Below, piece after piece: positions 365 through 38,492 of a DNA stretch of 64,000 nucleotides (the stretch's first letter is position 1; every line of letters begins with the position of its first letter). The position numbers and the translations under genes were made by a program. The notes beneath the pieces were generated by a model, which made no database searches, was not told where the DNA came from, and saw nothing but the letters and a program-made list of their open reading frames with translations. The stretch is from Nitrososphaerota archaeon (GTDB lineage: Archaea > Thermoproteota > Nitrososphaeria > Nitrososphaerales > Nitrosopumilaceae). The stretch lies in assembly GCA_016872015.1 (NCBI GenBank), contig VHBK01000001.1, positions 38,235 to 102,234 of the forward strand, given 5' to 3'.

Positions 365-1954
365 TTAAGAAAACTTGGATTTTGGCATACGAAGGGATCT
401 GTTGTATGCCACGCCGAACCTGTGGGCCTCATCTCGTGCATATTGCAAAATTTTCAGCGACTGGTTTTGCCTTGGTATGATGACTGGCTCTTTTTGGCTA
501 GGCAAAAACACCTCTTCGTTTTCTTTGGCAAGTGATGCACAGGGAATTCTGATTGCCATACTTTCCAGAGCAGACATTGCAGCGCCTAGCTGGCCTCGTC
601 CACCGTCAACTAGTATGAGGTCTGGCATTTGCGCACTTTCATTGTCCAGTCTAAAGTACCTGCGCTTGACAATTTCATTTATCATTGCAAAATCGTCTTG
701 GCCTCTTATCGTCTTTATCTTAAATTTTCTATATCCTGACTTGTCTGGCCTACCATTGACAAATCGCGACATTGAGCCAACGGCATATGATGTGCCGTGA
801 TTTGAAATATCAAAGCATTCTATTATTTTTGGTATCTTTGGCAGTGCTAGTCTTTCTTTTAGCTCAACTAGGCCTGGCTCTGCGCCACTTGACTGCACTA
901 GGGCAATATTTCTCATAATTAGGTCCAGCATTTCGCGTCGCTTGCCTGACTTGGGCGATATTATTCTGACTGGAAATCCAGCAGTCTTGGCAAACATTTG
1001 CTCTAATAATACGTGGTCTTCTGGAATCTGGTTTGTTATGATAAATGGCGGAATCTGGTTTGTTGTGTAATACTGGTATAGGAAATTGGTAAACGTGTTA
1101 TCGCCAATCAAGTCAAAGGAATACTTGTTGCTGTCGCGAATCACTCCGTTTATTTTCTTAAATGTCATGATGTGTATAGTCTGGTCAGACGATACTATGC
1201 CAAAATATTCCTCATCTGAGCCAGTAGCGCTTTCCATTTTTTGCCTGGTTTTGAGGCTGCCTAGTCTTTGGAGTGTGTCTTTGATTTCCTGGGCGCGCTC
1301 AAATTGGAGGCTTTTTGAGGCTAGGCTCATCTCCTGCTCTAGGTTTTTTGTAAATGCACCTAGATCTTTGCCCCTGAGTATTGCCTCTAGGGCTGCAACA
1401 TGCTTTTTGTAGTCTGTCTGGGCATGGGCAAACTCGCATGGCGCCTCGCAATTTCCCAAGTGGTATTCTAAACATGCTTTTTTTGGCAGCCTCTTGCAGA
1501 TTCTAATCTTGAATGTCTTTCGGAGGGAGCCAATGCTGAGAAGCTTTGAGCTGCCCGAAGTAAATGGCCCAAACACTTTGCCATCTCCTAGAAATTTTCC
1601 ACTGCGGGTTCTTCTTGCTACTAGTAATCTTGGGTAATGCTCGTCTGTTATTCTCAGGTATGTGTATCTCTGCTGGTCTTTGAGCTCAATATTGAACATG
1701 GGCCTGTATTGCTTTATCATGTTTGATTCAAGCAAGAATGCCTCTGATTCATTATCTGTTAGGACGAATTCTATTTCTGAAATTTTCTCAACCAGCTTTT
1801 GCGTCTTGTAGTTTTGGTTCTTTAGAAAATATGACCTGACTCTATTTTTGAGGTTTTTTGCCTTTCCGATATAGATTATCTTAGAATCAACATCTTTCAT
1901 CAGATAAATTCCTGGATGTGACGGGATGGTGATTTTTTTGATGTCTAGAGTCAA
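365..1954 (-). CDS. uvrC: Excinuclease ABC subunit C (lacks C-terminal HhH domain)
   Basis: GIY-YIG (PGIYLMKD..IIYIGKAKNLKNRV), UVR motif, RNase H-like CFDISN / DGGRGQ / RDEAHRF; overlaps uvrA. Confidence 0.97.
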   Translation of the reverse strand: MTLDIKKITIPSHPGIYLMKDVDSKIIYIGKAKNLKNRVRSYFLKNQNYKTQKLVEKISEIEFVLTDNESEAFLLESNMIKQYRPMFNIELKDQQRYTYLRITDEHYPRLLVARRTRSGKFLGDGKVFGPFTSGSSKLLSIGSLRKTFKIRICKRLPKKACLEYHLGNCEAPCEFAHAQTDYKKHVAALEAILRGKDLGAFTKNLEQEMSLASKSLQFERAQEIKDTLQRLGSLKTRQKMESATGSDEEYFGIVSSDQTIHIMTFKKINGVIRDSNKYSFDLIGDNTFTNFLYQYYTTNQIPPFIITNQIPEDHVLLEQMFAKTAGFPVRIISPKSGKRREMLDLIMRNIALVQSSGAEPGLVELKERLALPKIPKIIECFDISNHGTSYAVGSMSRFVNGRPDKSGYRKFKIKTIRGQDDFAMINEIVKRRYFRLDNESAQMPDLILVDGGRGQLGAAMSALESMAIRIPCASLAKENEEVFLPSQKEPVIIPRQNQSLKILQYARDEAHRFGVAYNRSLRMPKSKFS

Positions 1955-4764
1955 TTTAGGATCTTTTTGAGATATTGCCCTGTATAGCTTTTGGAATTTG
2001 CGGCAACCTGGGATGGGGTTCCAGTTGCAATTACTCTGCCGCCCTTGTCTCCGCCTTCCGGCCCTAGGTCTATTATCCAGTCGGAATTTTTGATTACATC
2101 CATGTTGTGCTCAATTACCACTATGGTGTTTCCAAGGTTAACCAGCCTGTTTAGGACATCAAGCAGCTTTTGCACATCAGCAAAGTGCAAGCCTGTCGTA
2201 GGCTCATCTAAAATGTACATTGTCTTGCCGGTGTCGCGCTTTGCAAGCTCTGATGCCAGCTTGACGCGCTGGGCTTCGCCTCCTGATAGTGTTGTAGATG
2301 ACTGGCCCAGCTTGATGTAGCCTAGGCCAACATCAAATATTGTTTGCAAAATTCGCTTTATTTTTGGAATGTTTTCAAAAAATACCCGTGCTTCTTCTAC
2401 TGTCATGTCTAGGACATCGGAGATGTTTTTGCCTTTGTATAATACGGATAGTGTCTCAGAATTGTATCGTTTTCCTTTACATTCATCACATCGAACATAA
2501 ACATCTGATAGGAACTGCATCTCTATTTTTTTGACGCCGTCGCCTTCGCATGCAAAGCATCTGCCGTCTGCAACATTAAATGAGAACTGCCCAGGTGTGT
2601 ATCCTCTCTCTTTTGATGATTCTGTATTTGCAAAGAGTTCTCTAATTGGAGTAAATGCGCCAATGTATGTTGCAGGGTTTGATCTTGGAGTGCGCCCAAT
2701 TGGGGATTGGTCTATTGCAATTACCTTGTCAATTAGTGTGGTTCCATCAATGGATTTGTGTTTTCCAGGCCTCTCATTGGATTTGTAAAAATATGATGAC
2801 AGTGATTTTAGCAGAATCTCATTTACCAGAGTCGATTTACCAGAGCCAGAAACTCCGGTCACAGTAACCAGCAACCCTAATGGAATCTCTACTGTGATAT
2901 CCTTGAGGTTGTTTTCTGCAGCGCCCTTGATGGTTATTGTACCAATCTGGTTTCTCTTTTTGTCTGTTAGCTTGATGATGTTTTTGTCTTTGAGATAGTC
3001 ACCTGTGACTGATTTGTGGTTGTTCATTATTTGTGGTACAGTTCCCTCAAAGACTACCTCTCCTCCATGGATTCCTGCACCTGGGCCCAAATCCACTATC
3101 CAGTCTGCATTTTTGATTACCTCTTCATCATGCTCTACTACTATTACGGTATTGTCTAGGTCTCTAAGCTTGACTAGTGTTTTGATTAGCCTGGCATTGT
3201 CGCGCTGGTGCAAGCCTATTGTGGGCTCATCAAGTACGTACAATACTCCTGTGAGATTAGAGCCAATCTGGGTTGCAAGCCTTATTCTCTGTGATTCTCC
3301 GCCTGAGAGAGTCGAGCTCTGCCTGTTTAGCGTCAAATAGTTGAGGCCCACATTTCTCAAAAATTCTAGTCGCTCTGTTATTTCCTTGAGGATGTCTTTA
3401 GCAATGTATTTTTCAGTATCTGTTAATTTGATTTCTTTGAAAAATTCATAGCAGTCATCAATGGATAAATCGCAGACTTCGAAAATTCCCTTGTTGTTTA
3501 CCTTGACTGCAAGTGCCTCTGGCTTTAGCTTTTTGCCATCACAAACGTTACATGGGATGTCTCGCATGAATTGCTTGAGCCAGTCCCGCTTTGACTCAGA
3601 ATCCGTTCCCATGAATACTCGCTGCAAATTATTCAGCACACCTTCAAATGAATTAGTATAAGCCCAGTGCGAGTCCGTTGTCTGGGATTCATAATGGAAG
3701 TTTATTCTCTGGTCTGTCCCATGTAGAATAACTCGGAGGTGCTCCGGCTTGAGCTTGTTAATTGGAGTCATCAGATCAAAGCCGAATTTTTTTCCAACTG
3801 CACGCAATTCCTGTTTTCTGAATGCGGAAAATCTCCCACTCCATGGAATTATGGCCCCATCCAGAATTGATTTTGTCTTGTCAGGAATTACCAAATCCTC
3901 ATCAAATTCCATTTTTACGCCAAGGCCATGACATGCCTTGCAGGAACCAAATGGTGAGTTGAATGAAAACGTCCTAGGCTCTATTTCGCCTACGGTGAGT
4001 CCGCAATATGGACACGCATTGTTTTGGGAAAACATTTTTTCGTCTTTTTCTGATGACACTAAAACCGAGCCCTTGGCCGCCTTTAGCGCGGTTTGAATTG
4101 CCTCAAATAATCTGCTTTTTTCTGCCTTGGAGGCCTTGAGTCTGTCCACTATAATCTCGATATTGTGCCATTTCTGCCTGTCTAGTGCTGGGATTTCATC
4201 TTCTAATAGAATTACTTGGCCATCAACTCTAGCTCGGGAATAGCCATCCTTTTTCATCTGCTCAAATAGTTTTTCGTACGTTCCTTTTTTTCTCTGGATT
4301 AGTGGCGCCAAAATCAGGACTTGTCTTTCATCAAAATCCTTGAAAATGGATTCACAAATTGATTCAACTGACTGGTTTGAAATTTTCCTGCCGCATTTGA
4401 TGCAATGAGGAATCCCAATTCTTGCGTATAGCAATCTCAGATAGTCATAGATTTCAGTAGTGGTGCCAACAGTAGAGCGGGGATTTTTTGATGTTGTCTT
4501 TTGTTGTATGGATATGGCAGGTGATAATCCTTCTATGGAATCAACATCTGGCTTGTCCATCATTTCTAGGAACTGCCTTGCATATGCAGATAGTGACTCT
4601 ACGTATCTTCTCTGCCCCTCTGCATAAATTGTATCAAAGGCCAAAGTAGACTTACCAGAGCCTGACAAGCCAGATATCACTACGAGCTTGTTTTTTGGTA
4701 TGTCCAAGTTTAGGTTCTTGAGGTTGTGATGGCGCGCACCTCGAATCTTTAGCTTATCGTGCAT
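1951..4764 (-). CDS. uvrA: Excinuclease ABC subunit A
   Basis: Two ABC ATPase modules (GLSGSGKS, GVSGSGKS, LSGGE x2), Zn fingers, 937 aa. Confidence 0.98.
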   Translation of the reverse strand: MHDKLKIRGARHHNLKNLNLDIPKNKLVVISGLSGSGKSTLAFDTIYAEGQRRYVESLSAYARQFLEMMDKPDVDSIEGLSPAISIQQKTTSKNPRSTVGTTTEIYDYLRLLYARIGIPHCIKCGRKISNQSVESICESIFKDFDERQVLILAPLIQRKKGTYEKLFEQMKKDGYSRARVDGQVILLEDEIPALDRQKWHNIEIIVDRLKASKAEKSRLFEAIQTALKAAKGSVLVSSEKDEKMFSQNNACPYCGLTVGEIEPRTFSFNSPFGSCKACHGLGVKMEFDEDLVIPDKTKSILDGAIIPWSGRFSAFRKQELRAVGKKFGFDLMTPINKLKPEHLRVILHGTDQRINFHYESQTTDSHWAYTNSFEGVLNNLQRVFMGTDSESKRDWLKQFMRDIPCNVCDGKKLKPEALAVKVNNKGIFEVCDLSIDDCYEFFKEIKLTDTEKYIAKDILKEITERLEFLRNVGLNYLTLNRQSSTLSGGESQRIRLATQIGSNLTGVLYVLDEPTIGLHQRDNARLIKTLVKLRDLDNTVIVVEHDEEVIKNADWIVDLGPGAGIHGGEVVFEGTVPQIMNNHKSVTGDYLKDKNIIKLTDKKRNQIGTITIKGAAENNLKDITVEIPLGLLVTVTGVSGSGKSTLVNEILLKSLSSYFYKSNERPGKHKSIDGTTLIDKVIAIDQSPIGRTPRSNPATYIGAFTPIRELFANTESSKERGYTPGQFSFNVADGRCFACEGDGVKKIEMQFLSDVYVRCDECKGKRYNSETLSVLYKGKNISDVLDMTVEEARVFFENIPKIKRILQTIFDVGLGYIKLGQSSTTLSGGEAQRVKLASELAKRDTGKTMYILDEPTTGLHFADVQKLLDVLNRLVNLGNTIVVIEHNMDVIKNSDWIIDLGPEGGDKGGRVIATGTPSQVAANSKSYTGQYLKKILN

Positions 4765-28975: not shown

Positions 28976-30130
28976 ATTTCAATAAAAAAATCCCAGTTTG
29001 CAAATAAAAATGCAAAACTGATCTTGTCTGATGGTACTATTCTTTCTGGCAGGGGCTTTGGTGCATCAAGGGCTGTTTTTGGAGAATTAGTATTCAACAC
29101 CGGAATGGTGGGTTATGTCGAAACCCTAACCGACCCGTCTTATTCTGGGCAAATCTTGACTCTGACCTATCCACTTGTGGGCAATTATGGCGTGCCTGAC
29201 CCTGCACAAGCCGATGAGTCTGGGATATCAAAATTCTTTGAATCTGGGCGTATTCAGGCTCGAGGATTGGTAGTACATGAATTATCAGAGATTGCAAGCC
29301 ACTGGAATTTGTCCATGACATTAGATGAGTGGATGCACAAGGAAGGTGTACCGGGAATTTCCGATATTGATACTAGGGAGCTGACAAAGAAACTTCGAAT
29401 CAGCGGAGTCACAATGGCTGCACTAGTAGTCTCTGATTCTGAAATCAATGCAGAACAAGTCAAAAAGGAATTGGCAGCTGCAAAGCCATATTCTGAAGAA
29501 AAATTCATGGATGCCGTTTCCACAAAACAAGCCCAGACATTTGGGCAAGAATCTGATTGTGTTGTTGTGGTGGATACTGGCGTCAAAAATGCCATACTGC
29601 GAAATGTCCGGGATCTGGGATACAAGGTAATCAAGGTTCCATGGAACACTAGCTATTCTGATATAATGAAATATGATCCAAAGGGAGTCGTACTAAGTAA
29701 TGGTCCTGGAGATCCGGAAGCATGTCCTGAGACAATAGAGACTGCCAAGAATCTAATCCAAAATGACATCCCAACACTTGGAATTTGTCTTGGCGCACAG
29801 ATAATTGGCCTAGCCGGTGGTGCCAGTACTTACAAGCTAAAGTACGGGCACCGGGGACAAAACAAGTCTTGTCTTAATCTGCAAAACAAGCAAGTCTATG
29901 TCACATCGCAAAACCATGGATACTGCATAGACCCTGACTCGCTAGGAAAAACGGAATTTGATTTATGGTTTACAAACACTGACGATAACACAGTCGAAGG
30001 CATTCGACACAAGCTCAAAAAAATAATTGCAGTGCAATTTCATCCAGAGGCATCGCCTGGCCCATATGACTGCAAATTTGTTTTCGAAGAGCTTGATTCT
30101 TTGATAAAAGGAGGGAAGCAAAATCAATAA
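28976..30130 (+). CDS. carA: Carbamoyl-phosphate synthase small subunit
   Basis: GELVFNTGMVGY, LSNGPGDP, GICLG, QNHG, VQFHPEA; start uncertain (first canonical TTG 29024 is inside the conserved AxLxLxDG motif). Confidence 0.96.
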   Translation: MSIKKSQFANKNAKLILSDGTILSGRGFGASRAVFGELVFNTGMVGYVETLTDPSYSGQILTLTYPLVGNYGVPDPAQADESGISKFFESGRIQARGLVVHELSEIASHWNLSMTLDEWMHKEGVPGISDIDTRELTKKLRISGVTMAALVVSDSEINAEQVKKELAAAKPYSEEKFMDAVSTKQAQTFGQESDCVVVVDTGVKNAILRNVRDLGYKVIKVPWNTSYSDIMKYDPKGVVLSNGPGDPEACPETIETAKNLIQNDIPTLGICLGAQIIGLAGGASTYKLKYGHRGQNKSCLNLQNKQVYVTSQNHGYCIDPDSLGKTEFDLWFTNTDDNTVEGIRHKLKKIIAVQFHPEASPGPYDCKFVFEELDSLIKGGKQNQ

Positions 30131-33100
30131 TGAGTCACTGAAAAAAATCCTAGTTTTAGGCAGTGGGGCAATTAAAATCGGAGAAGCAGGCGAAAGTCGC
30201 TAAAACGACCGCTAATTCGACTACTCCGGTAGCCAATGCCTCAAGGCCATACACGAAGACGGTCTGAAATCCGTACTGATCAATCCAAATATCGCAACGA
30301 TTCAGACTGATACTAGATTTGCAGACAAGGTGTACCTACTTCCTGTTACGCCAGAGTATGTTTCCTCTATAATAGAATCAGAGCGACCAGATGGAATAAT
30401 GCTTGGATATGGGGGACAGACTGCCCTTAACTGCGGTGTTAAACTAGCTGAGGCAAACGTTTTACAAAAATATGGAGTCAAAGTTTTGGGAACGCAAATC
30501 CCAGGAATTCAGAGAACCGAAGACCGACAATTATTCAAGGACTCGATGAATGAATGTGGAGTTCCGGTACTCAGATCAAAAACGGTAAACACATTTGAGG
30601 ATGCAAAAAAGGCAGCAGAAGAACTGGGATACCCGGTAATAATTCGAGTCGCCTATACTTTGGGCGGCCGTGGAGGCGGAGTTGCACACAATGAAATTGA
30701 ACTGCACGAAATTGTAGAGCGTGGCCTCAATGCAAGTTTGGTACACCAAGTACTAATTGAGGAATACATTGGCCACTGGAAGCAAATTGAATATGAGGTA
30801 ATGCAGGACTATGAGGGAAACAATGTCATTGTGTGTAACATGGAAAATGTTCTATCCATGCGAGTCCACACTGGTGATAACATTGTAGTTGCCCCCTCTC
30901 AAACAATAGACAATCGAGAATACCACATGTTGCGCTCTGCCGCACTACGTGGAACAAAATATGTCGGAATAATTGGCGAGTGCAACATCCAGTTTGCACT
31001 GGATGTAAAATCCGATAGATATGTTGCAATTGAAATCAATCCGAGATTATCACGATCATCTGCTTTGGCTAGCAAGGCAACCGGATATCCGCTTGCGTAC
31101 ATGTCTGCCAAAATCGGACTAGGACATACATTGCCTGAGCTGGTAAATAGAATCACAAAAACCACGACTGCGTGCTTTGAGCCGTCCCTGGACTATGCCG
31201 TAATCAAGCATCCTAGGTGGGACTTTACCAAATTTGAGCGTGCAAACCGCAAGCTTGGTCCTACAATGAAGTCAGTAGGCGAGGTAATGGCAGTCGGGCG
31301 CACATTTGAGGAATCACTGCAAAAATCAATTCGAATGCTAGACATTGGTAATGATGGCTTGGTGCTAAATAGAATCAATGTGGATGATGAGGAAATAGAA
31401 AACATTGAAAATCACCTGCTAAACGCAGACGACCGGGTTTTGTATTATGTGGCAGCTGCTCTCCGCAAAGGAATCTCTGTTGAAAAAATCCAAAAACTCT
31501 CGTTTATTGATCCGTGGTTTATTGAGAAAATCAAAAATATCGTCGATGTAGAATCTGACCTCAAGAAAAAACAACTGGACAAAGAAATAATGCGAAAGGC
31601 AAAACACCTGGGATTCTCTGACAAGCAAATTGCGCGGGCTACAAACAAAGACGACATGGAAATACGCAAAATACGCAAAGACATGGGAGTGTTGCCCGTA
31701 GTAAAGCAAATTGACACACTGGCAGCAGAGTGGCCTGCCAAGACTAACTATCTTTACATGACTTATGGGGGTTATGACAACGACATTACAGTAACACCTG
31801 ATCAAAAAGGCATCATAGTATTGGGCGCAGGCCCATATCGAATCGGCTCTTCAGTGGAATTTGACTGGGGAACAGTCAACATGGTCTGGGGCTTGCAGCA
31901 AAACGGCGAATCAAATGTTGTCGTGGTGAACTGTAATCCTGAAACAGTATCTACTGATTATGACATTTGCTCTCGATTATACTTTGAAGAGCTCACACTC
32001 GAGAGAATTCTCGATATAGTGGACATGGAAAATCCAAAAGGCGTAGTAACATCCGTGGGCGGACAAACCGCAAACAATCTGACACCAAAACTGGCAAAAT
32101 CTGGAATCAAGCTGTTTGGCACATCTGCAGAAGATGTGGACAGAGCCGAGGACCGCTCTAAATTCAGCGCAGTTCTGGACAAACTGCACATAAAGCAGCC
32201 TCAATGGCAGGCATTTTCCAACTTTTCAGAGGCAAAATCCTTTGCCACAAAGGTTGGCTATCCTGTCTTGGTTAGGCCCTCATACGTGTTGTCTGGTGCA
32301 GCAATGAAGGTTGTCTGGTCACAAGAGGAATTATCTAGATATGTTGGCGAGGCAACAACTCTTTCACCGGATCATCCAGTTGTAATAACAAAATTCATGC
32401 TAAATTCCCTGGAAGTAGATGTCGATGGGGTATCTGATGGAAAGAACGTTTTCATTGGCGCACTCGTGGAGCACATTGACGCGGCTGGCGTACACTCTGG
32501 TGATGCAATGATGGTCATTCCGCCATGGAGACTATCAAACAAGCAGGTCGAAACGATAACTGACTATGCGACACGAATTGCAAAGTCGTTTAACATTAGA
32601 GGACCGTTTAATCTGCAGTTTTTGATAAACAATGATCAGGTCTATGTAATAGAGCTGAACATCAGGGCGTCTCGCTCAATGCCGTTTGTATCAAAACTGA
32701 TCAAAACCAATCTTATCAACCTGGCAGCACAAGCAGTTCTTGGAAAAGAGATACCGAAAATCCAGCCCGACAAATGGAAGAAAACACCAATACATGGAAT
32801 CAAGATGCCCCAGTTTTCGTTTATGCAGCTGGATGGGGCAGACATTGTACTCGGTGTAGAGATGCAATCAACTGGCGAGGCTGCATGTTTTGGAGATAGT
32901 TTCTATGATGCACTATCAAAGGGCTTGATTTCCGTTGGATATAATCTGCCAAAGACTGGCACCGCGCTGATCACAATAGGCGGCTCGGAAAACAAGGAAA
33001 AACTGCTTCAAACAATGGCTACGCTTAAGCACCTTGGGTTCAAGTTGCTGGCAACAGAGCACACTGCAGAATTCCTAGAGGAAAAACAAATCGGCGATGT

Positions 33101-33383
33101 TCAAATAGTCCACAAGATCTCCGAACCGGAAAGAAAGCCAAACATCTCGGACTTGTTATATGAGAGAAAAATCAATTTCATCATCAATATTCCATCCACA
33201 TCAACTCTGGAAAAATACGTAGGAATGCTAAATGACGAATACCAAATTAGAAGAAAGGCAATCGAGCTTGGCATACCCGTGCTCACTACCACAGAGCTTG
33301 CGGAATCCTTTGTAAAGACACTAGAATGGATGAATCACAACGAAACGACCAAAAAAGCACTAGAGCCGTACGACCCCATCTAA
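30123..33383 (+). CDS. carB: Carbamoyl-phosphate synthase large subunit, interrupted; join(30123..30194,30216..33383), about 1079 aa
   Basis: LVLGSGAIKIGEAGE | FDYSG continuous after removing 21 nt; two ATP-grasp domains and an MGS domain; start codon non-canonical or uncertain. Confidence 0.95.
30195..30215 (+). other. Putative bulge-helix-bulge (BHB) mRNA intron in carB
   Basis: AGTCGCTAAAACGACCGCTAA; helix GGCG(30189-92)/CGCT(30210-13), bulges AAA and AAT, intron stem GTCG/CGAC; canonical cut sites give exactly the frame-restoring deletion. Confidence 0.88.
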
Positions 33384-37791: not shown

Positions 37792-38492
37792 AATCTATCA
37801 TATTTTGCCAGGTTTTCATGTTTTGACAGCTTTGATAGTTTTGGCCCGCCAAGATATGTGGTAACATATGCAATTCCGCCAGCTATCATGCCTGTCGCAA
37901 AGACTAGGGCAAACACTGCTACTGGAAGCTTGACAATATCCATTAGGTATTGCGCTTGGTTTTGCTCGCCTTCTGCAAAGCTGACAAATCCAGTTCCAAC
38001 AAATCCTGCAACTATGAGAAGAATAGTAGTTGTTGCCCCTCCAACATTCATTCCGATTAGCTGAGTCCAGGCTAGCTTGGTTTTTGTTCCGCGCACTTGT
38101 TTTCCTAGATTTGATTCTAGGTGATTGTAGAAAATTGCGGTGATTGCTATTGCTACTACTAGTGTGATGTACATGAAATATCCAAAAAAGAACCATTTTG
38201 CAGGCCCATCAAGTGACAGTGACAAAAACTCTATCAGTGATACTTCGGAAAATATTGCTTGCATTAGGATCAATGAAACTGTTAATCCTGTTATGACTGC
38301 GCCTTGGATTATGGCAGATAATACGAATCTGTTGCCCCAGGGGCTAGGCTTTTTCTTGTCAGATACTTCCAAGAATCGCCTGCGTTCTGACTCTTTTTTC
38401 TCTATTTCTGCATAATCGTGGAATTTCTTTAGCAGCCTGGATTCTTCTTCCTCTGAAAAAAAGTCATCTACTGGACTATCCCATCTTGACAT
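37788..38492 (-). CDS. Four-TM hypothetical membrane protein
   Basis: Charged N-terminus then four hydrophobic segments. Confidence 0.75.
   Translation of the reverse strand: MSRWDSPVDDFFSEEEESRLLKKFHDYAEIEKKESERRRFLEVSDKKKPSPWGNRFVLSAIIQGAVITGLTVSLILMQAIFSEVSLIEFLSLSLDGPAKWFFFGYFMYITLVVAIAITAIFYNHLESNLGKQVRGTKTKLAWTQLIGMNVGGATTTILLIVAGFVGTGFVSFAEGEQNQAQYLMDIVKLPVAVFALVFATGMIAGGIAYVTTYLGGPKLSKLSKHENLAKYDRF

Follow-up and report, generated by a model that had tools for sequence, protein, structure and literature searches.

The carbamoyl-phosphate synthase gene carB of a Candidatus Nitrosotenuis genome is interrupted by a 21-nt insert that we consider, at a probability of roughly 0.88, to be a real and spliced tRNA-type intron of bulge-helix-bulge (BHB)-like form within the coding sequence. 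The insert occupies positions 30195-30215 of a 64,000-nt stretch, hereafter the window, which corresponds to positions 38,235 to 102,234 of contig VHBK01000001.1 (GenBank assembly GCA_016872015.1). The initial annotation of the window had proposed a BHB-type intron in carB, cut between the second and third bulge nucleotides, and four lines of evidence now support this core claim: interruption of the same codon boundary in 231 sequences, covarying helices, constraint on synonymous exon sites and an RNA contig from a sister genus (run X37) that omits the insert exactly. The insert is genomic, ancient, conserved and always frame-breaking, and comparison of homologs indicates that it is under selection for a hairpin and for a 4-bp exon-intron helix with 3-nt spacing.

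The insert in carB and its predicted fold

The carB frame of the window reads ...LVLGSGAIKIGEAGE, then SR(stop)NDR(stop) from the insert and then FDYSGSQ, placing the insert between IGEAGE and FDYSGSQ; in a longer reading the exon 1 side ends in ...ESLKKILVLGSGAIKIGEAGE directly before SR(stop)NDR(stop). The 21-mer occurs once in the window. The elements of the interrupted gene and of its predicted fold are as follows (^ marks a splice point or exon boundary):

30195-30215, + strand: intron, 21 nt, AGTCGCTAAAACGACCGCTAA, with in-frame TAA codons at 30201-30203 and 30213-30215
30123-30194, + strand: carB exon 1, 24 codons, INNESLKKILVLGSGAIKIGEAGE, start presumed at the non-canonical ATC 30123-30125
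30216-33383, + strand: carB exon 2, 1055 codons plus stop, open frame from 30216 with the stop at 33381-33383
30177-30183, + strand: outer exon-exon helix, 5′ strand AUCGGAG, pairing with 30224-30230
30224-30230, + strand: outer exon-exon helix, 3′ strand CUCCGGU, pairing with 30177-30183
30189-30192, + strand: central 4-bp helix H, exon strand GGCG, 98.5% of cells paired
30210-30213, + strand: central helix H, intron strand CGCU, pairing with GGCG at 30189-30192
30193-30195, + strand: 5′ three-nucleotide bulge A-A^A, 5′ splice site between 30194 and 30195
30196-30209, + strand: intron hairpin h′, GUCG (30196-30199), loop CUAAAA (30200-30205), CGAC (30206-30209)
30214-30216, + strand: 3′ bulge A-A^U, relaxed, 3′ splice site between 30215 and 30216

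Left in place, the insert ends the carB reading after 26 codons, while its removal yields GGCGAA^TTCGAC with Glu and Phe in frame and, given a start at ATC 30123, a product of 1079 aa. Frame translation thus confirmed the insert with two in-frame stops given in the initial annotation, and in-silico removal bore out its restored GE-FDYSG frame of about 1079 aa. The EcoRI site (GAATTC) that it expected at the spliced junction also forms, from DNA reading TAATTC at that point. The exon 2 product matches the CarB model TIGR01369 (1052 positions) at 1385 bits from profile position 25 to 1051, so the missing part is exactly the 24 residues encoded by exon 1. Once the 21 nt are taken out, the N-terminus gives a gap-free alignment across the junction with human CPS1 and E. 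coli CarB.

Every pairing that the initial annotation had proposed is present, and the minimum-free-energy fold of 30170-30236 reproduces the outer stem, three intermediate pairs, GGCG/CGCU, the AAA bulge and the GUCG/CGAC hairpin (-16.4 kcal/mol, z = -1.8; z across relatives -1.2 to -2.8). RNAalifold returned the same consensus structure from 65 homologous sequences when no structure was supplied. The description of the motif as a canonical BHB had to be amended, since no more than a single A-U pair (30188:30217) closes the 3′ bulge AAU and the helix that follows is interrupted, so that the minimum-free-energy fold has a 1x5 internal loop here; the 3′ side has the relaxed BHB or bulge-helix-loop form. 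The motif as modelled is thus canonical in its 5′ half and relaxed in its 3′ half (HBh′ or bulge-helix-loop type), with a 10-pair interrupted exon-exon helix h (94.9% paired) and an intron hairpin h′ of 4-6 bp. Relaxed sites of this kind are reportedly accepted by the hetero-tetrameric EndA of Crenarchaeota and Thaumarchaeota (PMC4090602, PMC2738675, PMC12397907). A self-splicing group I/II intron or a known structured RNA was considered and rejected, the inserts being only 20-24 nt long and an Rfam search of positions 29900-30500 giving no match at E ≤ 1.

The insert is not an assembly artefact absent from the underlying DNA, as it was found both in contigs of sequencing runs and in independent metagenome-assembled genomes (MAGs). 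Two independent MAGs contain the exact 33-mer around it; one of them bears the label Ca. Nitrosotenuis, which also gives the genus of the window. Contigs from four lake-water metagenome runs (word depth 214-355) include the insert and run through 30050-30243 without gap or joint. Contigs from three further runs likewise cross the region with the insert.

Conservation of the insert and of its pairing

A protein-guided scan yielded 80 carB loci of Nitrosopumilales, with the E^F boundary split by an insert in all Nitrosotenuis and Nitrosarchaeum-like loci and an uninterrupted GAA^TTT in most Nitrosopumilus and Nitrosopelagicus loci. A DNA pattern allowing any 12-42 nt between GGCGAR and TTYGAYTAYTCNGGNAGYCA matched at least 119 species genomes, including Nitrosotalea, Cenarchaeum, N. 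salarius BD31, many MAGs labelled 'Nitrososphaerales' and Ca. Nitrosomirales, and a similar pattern matched at least 119 metagenome contigs; the DNA patterns were not aimed at Nitrososphaera, Nitrosocosmicus or Nitrosocaldus. In total, 231 distinct sequences carrying 82 different inserts were collected, all interrupted at one codon boundary, from Nitrosotenuis, Nitrosarchaeum, Nitrosotalea, Cenarchaeum, some Nitrosopumilus, Nitrosomirales and others. Insert lengths were distributed as follows:

20 nt: 30 sequences
21 nt: 151 sequences
22 nt: 45 sequences
23 nt: 1 sequence
24 nt: 4 sequences

The length is not a multiple of three in 76 of the 231, and every 21- or 24-nt insert contains an in-frame stop. 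All 82 distinct introns begin with AG, end in AA (71), AG (9) or AT (2) and are followed without exception by the T that opens the Phe codon. The 5′ bulge is invariant in length, with A at positions 1 and 3 and A or G at position 2.

Covariation was assessed on 65 distinct sequences (alignment A1) using the structure taken from the window. Standard pairs made up 94.4% of cells, compared with 21-52% when the 3′ partners were slid by 1-3 columns, and none of 500 shuffles reached the observed covariation score or the count of doubly changed cells. Homologous inserts therefore conserve the BHB pairing, as the initial annotation had asked of them, and compensatory changes occur in four of the five pairs of the inner hairpin. 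The three core variable pairs contain no unpaired cells:

pair 27:41: UA 44, CG 14, UG 7
pair 28:40: CG 56, UA 8, AU 1
pair 29:39: GC 46, AU 15, UA 3, UG 1

Contigs from sequencing runs add stem-swapped variants (CCUG/CAGG, GUUA/UAAC, CCAG/CUGG and GUCAG/CUGAC). On its intron side the central helix takes four sequences in the 82 distinct introns (CGTC 36, CGCC 28, CGCT 10, CGCA 8), and all variants pair with GGCG except for the terminal A of CGCA; the exon strand stays GGCG because the Gly-Glu codons hold it. The outer helix leaves its mark on codon choice. In insert-bearing genomes its synonymous sites are nearly fixed (ATC and GGA 99%; GAC, TAC and TCC 98%), whereas intronless genomes carry ATT (64%), GGT (38%), GAT (75%), TAT (66%) and TCT (64%) at the same sites; the constraint on the synonymous exon sites of the outer helix is confined to genomes with the insert.

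These patterns bear on whether ribosomes could instead pass over an insert retained in the mRNA, by translational bypass of the kind known from phage T4 gene 60. The two share a short coding-sequence gap with a stop and a hairpin, and in carB the hairpin directly follows the last exon 1 codon, the stops come early and the gap is short (20-24 nt). Bypass needs matching codons, however, and the carB insert lacks matched take-off and landing codons, with GAA or GAG at take-off against TAA, CAA, CAG, AAG or CAT before TTC. The covariation also reaches the helix between exon GGCG and the 3′ end of the intron, and the 3-nt spacing is BHB geometry with no role in bypass. Together with the physical absence of the gap from the RNA contig of run X37, this makes ribosomal skipping barely credible.

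Downstream of the insert the gene is intact. Of the 105 loci in which a stop was reached, 94 have a full-length exon 2 (at least 1000 aa), and the first 300 aa of CarB are 86-98% identical across genera. The gene is thus too constrained to be a pseudogene, and the insert must be neutralised after transcription. Second introns were considered for the 11 loci with short exon 2 open reading frames (ORFs) and rejected, as these ORFs are cut short by frameshifts, by an N-gap or by single stop codons, in assemblies that have low coverage or appear error-prone. Among these is the complete-genome record of Ca. Nitrosotenuis chungbukensis MY2 (NZ_CP130341.1, locus L124:2272-5533), where the carB frame shifts four times or more beyond the intron, near residues 365, 836, 890 and 1040; these changes resemble long-read indel errors and not further introns.

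The distribution of the intron is patchy, with two intron-bearing species within an otherwise intronless Nitrosopumilus cluster and close pairs differing in its presence (BD31 with the intron and locus L050 without; locus L177 with and L085 without). Because the patchiness extends to close relatives, sequence comparison points to repeated, precise intron losses. The intronless carB of Thaumarchaeota archaeon NIOZ-UU124 (L085:1290-1644) shares 95% DNA identity with the intron-bearing L177 and keeps the helix-forming codons ATCGGAGAAGCGGGCGAA^TTCGACTACTCCGG. As such codons are expected to persist soon after a loss, L085 looks like a recent and precise one. Outside these lineages, a MAG labelled DPANN (Candidatus Iainarchaeum, JAZDEL010000009.1, locus L146:5858-5922) carries a 39-nt insert at the same carB E^F boundary, with the same layout of A, a GCAA...UUGC hairpin, CGCC and AA, and with an in-frame TGA. 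The intron may predate Nitrososphaerota, it may have been gained independently or by transfer, or the contig may be mis-binned.

Spliced and unspliced forms in RNA-labelled runs

The RNA evidence consists of assembler contigs built from 31-mers, which keep the majority path, may include DNA and are not quantitative. The Nitrosarchaeum locus L077 carries a 22-nt insert at 2479-2500, and 17 RNA-labelled runs were listed for it. One of these, the lake-water metatranscriptome X37, contains a single 361-nt contig (depth 34.7) with 5 mismatches to L077 (98.6% identical) that omits exactly the 22-nt insert, giving the junction GGCGAA^TTTGAC when gap left-normalisation and a GAG/GAA polymorphism are allowed for. 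This is the junction predicted by cuts after the second nucleotide of each bulge, and the reads must contain it, since a 31-mer assembler could not produce it otherwise. Each of the 25 DNA sequences closest to the contig, at 5-36 mismatches, has the intron; the first intronless sequence comes at 53 mismatches. A joined-form pattern searched across 185,579 species matched two intronless thaumarchaeal genomes only, at 81% and 75% identity to L077, and the joined form with Nitrosarchaeum or Nitrosotenuis flanks was found in none of 241 million metagenome records, compared with at least 119 with the insert. We take the X37 contig to be spliced mRNA, so that the spliced junction sought in RNA was found, in one contig of one run and in Nitrosarchaeum rather than in the genus of the window. 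The comparative evidence is independent of this contig.

The same data bear on a reading of the insert as a disabling lesion in a carB pseudogene, or as an assembly or sequencing artefact, with the X37 contig derived from an unsampled intronless strain. The unspliced product is only 26 aa long, the gene has no canonical start codon and intronless sister lineages such as L085 exist, all of which would fit. Such an account is nevertheless highly improbable, as the insert recurs in independent assemblies and in contigs from raw runs, its pairing is under purifying selection, and the 1055-codon exon 2 is intact here, as in the 94 of 105 loci above at 86-98% amino acid identity. An unsampled intronless source for X37 is opposed by the absence of any joined form among the metagenome contigs with these flanks and by the insert in all 25 of the nearest DNA neighbours.

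Several observations weigh against splicing of a BHB-like intron as we propose it. The thermodynamics alone are weak evidence for the fold, the single-sequence z-scores being modest, and in its 3′ half the motif departs from a canonical 3-nt bulge with a regular closing helix. No RNA-labelled run containing the window's own sequence was listed, and the spliced form is represented by one contig of one run from a sister genus. RNA-labelled runs X25, X31-X36, X38 and X39, from sediment, estuary and soil, hold the unspliced form only. Finally, the 95% identity of L085 to the intron-bearing L177 demonstrates that close intronless relatives can exist. Runs X26-X30, also RNA-labelled, are unspliced too and look DNA-like, with contigs of up to 41 kb. 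The unspliced contigs may be either DNA carry-over or a real accumulation of pre-mRNA, two sources that contigs cannot separate. In run X32 the intron-retaining contig (L077:2250-2850) has a depth of 54, above that of neighbouring carB pieces.

If the retained intron reflects pre-mRNA, splicing could be a regulated switch and not constitutive, with EndA and RtcB gating CarB and thereby arginine and pyrimidine synthesis in a manner like that of HAC1/XBP1. We regard this as unlikely, although it would account for intron retention in the nine sediment, estuary and soil runs (X32 included, at depth 54) while the water-column run X37 holds the spliced form only, and it agrees with the keeping of the intron across several orders of ammonia-oxidizing archaea (AOA) and with the weak non-canonical start codon that carB has in many of the lineages concerned. 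The depth of a contig is no quantitative measure, however, DNA carry-over explains the unspliced contigs equally well, and several precise losses without loss of carB (in Nitrosopumilus species and in L085 relative to L177) speak against the intron being indispensable. A more specific version, in which AOA keep a pool of unspliced carB pre-mRNA, the retained contigs are real pre-mRNA and conditional splicing by the tRNA machinery gates the supply of carbamoyl phosphate, is a little more doubtful still. If true, conditional carB splicing would give prokaryotes a counterpart to that of HAC1/XBP1. The two resemble each other in outline, each involving a small structured coding-sequence intron that is cut by a protein endonuclease and joined by a tRNA ligase (RtcB in metazoa), with a change of reading frame or product. 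They differ in that the HAC1/XBP1 endonuclease is IRE1, acting at twin 7-nt loops in a proven stress switch, while for carB it is presumably EndA acting at a BHB.

Several other contigs were examined. Contigs from the marine runs X48 and X51 joining exon 2 and exon 1 (loose end CGCCCGCTTCT) were first read as spliced RNA but are not counted, as their alleles fit the intronless L085. A contig of run X38 starting at the first intron base was rejected as a cleavage product because the adjacent GAG/GAA polymorphism would break a k-mer assembly there. Depth falls across the intron in X43 and X48, but this is uninformative, since several strains and intronless species contribute to the exon depth. 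In run X43 one contig of depth 5 skips 87 nt of locus L267 (3995-4083), comprising the 21-nt intron and the first 66 nt of exon 2; the skip is in frame, abuts the last base of exon 1 and could be a mis-splice, use of an alternative 3′ site or an assembly chimera. A search of the protein database for the junction-spanning peptide of spliced Nitrosotenuis carB returned only DNA-metagenome fragments of intronless lineages.

Proposed mechanism, gene context and related systems

In the pre-mRNA, exon GGCG would pair with intron CGCU to form the 4-bp central helix, flanked by the intron hairpin and the long interrupted exon-exon helix. These two flanking elements would present the points of cleavage, with a 3-nt bulge containing the 5′ splice site and a bulge or loop containing the 3′ one. 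EndA, which in this phylum is a broad-specificity α2β2 enzyme, would cut after the second nucleotide of each bulge, leaving 2′,3′-cyclic phosphate and 5′-OH ends and releasing the 20-24-nt intron, and RtcB would join the exons into ...GGC GAA^TTC GAC.... Only the spliced mRNA would encode the 1079-aa CarB. As the unspliced mRNA would yield a 26-residue peptide, CarB synthesis would depend on splicing. We infer that the window's own transcript is spliced, and that splicing is constitutive. The conservation is most simply explained if carB is essential and its intron therefore has to remain spliceable, with no separate function of the intron itself.

EndA and RtcB are presumed here by analogy with known systems. 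Thaumarchaeota have an α2β2 EndA of broad specificity that accepts relaxed motifs (PMC4090602), and the introns of cbf5 are cut between the second and third bulge residues (PMC2738675). The insert might instead be removed from the RNA by another nuclease and ligase pair or by self-cleavage, for which the non-canonical 3′ site and the presumptive role of EndA/RtcB leave some room. We consider this very unlikely, as the geometry is the signature of EndA, with a 4-bp helix, a 3-nt bulge and predicted cuts after the second bulge nucleotide on both sides; the bulges are pseudo-symmetric (A-R^A and A-N^U), and the same cleavage rule holds in cbf5, where cleavage by EndA has been demonstrated (PMC2738675). 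In addition, inserts of 20-24 nt are too small for any ribozyme and match no Rfam family.

The carB gene directly follows carA, and the following features precede or overlap its presumed start:

29024-30130, + strand: carA, small subunit of glutamine-hydrolysing carbamoyl-phosphate synthase, ORF matching TIGR01368 at 431 bits (cutoff 307)
30110-30115, + strand: Shine-Dalgarno-like GGAGGG, 7-8 nt 5′ of the presumed carB start

No in-frame ATG, GTG or TTG for carB occurs between the stop at 30105-30107 and the insert, and the start is therefore presumed to be ATC 30123-30125. The initial annotation had overlooked this absence of a canonical start codon. The ATC occupies the position that holds ATG or TTG in intronless Nitrosopumilus, and in relatives a GGAGG lies at equal spacing before the ATG, TTG or CTG at the start position. 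The codon itself varies, being ATC, ATT or ATA in Nitrosotenuis, CTG in 159 Nitrosarchaeum-like loci and ATG in Nitrosotalea; CTG is also found in some intronless lineages (L085, L336 and L337). The carA stop TAA (30128-30130) overlaps the carB start region, and in all lineages compared for the start codon carA is 5-6 codons longer, with its stop overlapping the carB start. This overlap by a longer carA suggests that carB is initiated at a near-cognate codon, perhaps through termination-reinitiation.

A scan of the whole window for BHB motifs, coupled to an ORF-merging test, gave 80 candidates, among which carB alone restores a long conserved ORF. The most striking of the others, at 1900-1958 on the minus strand, is an ordinary 4-nt overlap of two adjacent genes. 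These are ORFs of 937 aa and 529 aa within 365-4764 on the minus strand; the second begins ...IYLMKDVDSKIIYIGK and is UvrC-like, and from their size and the N-terminal motif of the second the pair is probably uvrA-uvrC.

The closest known case is the intron in cbf5 of Crenarchaeota (Watanabe 2002; Yoshinari 2006; Yokobori 2009, PMC2738675). Both introns are short, lie in coding sequence, have a relaxed BHB with predicted cuts between the second and third bulge residues, occur in hosts with a hetero-tetrameric, broad-specificity EndA and are gained or lost patchily among close relatives. They differ in the gene interrupted, a core metabolic enzyme for carB and an RNA-modification enzyme for cbf5, and in phase, the carB intron lying between codons (phase 0) and the cbf5 intron inside the codon for the catalytic Asp. 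The carB intron is also small and uniform in size (20-24 nt), unlike that of cbf5, and its hosts are mesophilic Nitrososphaerota in contrast to Crenarchaeota. In carB, but not in cbf5, the coding sequence itself (the Gly-Glu codons) builds the central helix, and an exon-exon helix of 7-10 bp constrains synonymous sites. Membership of the cbf5 intron family by homology was rejected, since the host gene is carB; the mechanism class is shared and the intron family is not. In Cenarchaeum and Nitrosopumilus cbf5 is intronless (PMC2738675).

The non-canonical tRNA introns of Thaumarchaeota and Crenarchaeota share with the carB intron the presumed enzymes and the cleavage rule, within a size range of 11-175 nt, and likewise combine one canonical bulge with one relaxed site (relaxed BHB, HBh′ or bulge-helix-loop). 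The carB substrate differs in being an mRNA, with no tRNA body for recognition and with a reading frame that must be kept. Processing of an mRNA at BHB sites has also been described for HVO_1309 of Haloferax volcanii, where removal appears to matter for expression as it would in carB (Schwarz 2020, PMC7714728). That BHB intron, however, lies in the 5′ untranslated region (5′ UTR) of a gene in a single euryarchaeal species with a narrower-specificity enzyme, whereas the carB intron lies in coding sequence.

A 2020 paper lists no BHB intron within the coding sequence of an archaeal gene other than cbf5 of Crenarchaeota (PMC7714728), and a 2025 paper cites the cbf5 papers alone for archaeal pre-mRNA splicing (PMC12397907). 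The HVO_1309 5′ UTR is the only other archaeal mRNA substrate in the literature up to 2025 (PMC7714728, PMC12397907). We found no report of a carB intron in full-text literature, which does not cover subscription-only papers. According to the literature examined, carB is thus the second archaeal protein-coding gene family known to need BHB splicing, after cbf5.

A second family would mean that mRNA splicing by the tRNA machinery is no crenarchaeal oddity, reaching a core enzyme in globally abundant mesophilic ammonia oxidizers of several orders. Gene callers blind to the intron and, in many lineages, to the non-canonical start would misannotate carB as truncated or as a pseudogene across hundreds of genomes and MAGs of AOA, and metabolic reconstructions could wrongly infer arginine or pyrimidine auxotrophy. 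The 82 intron variants, with their compensatory changes, constrained codon choice and precise losses, form a natural data set on mRNA BHB introns, showing what a relaxed BHB requires in an mRNA and how these introns get lost. They also open the question of whether splicing by EndA and RtcB limits or regulates the expression of a biosynthetic gene.

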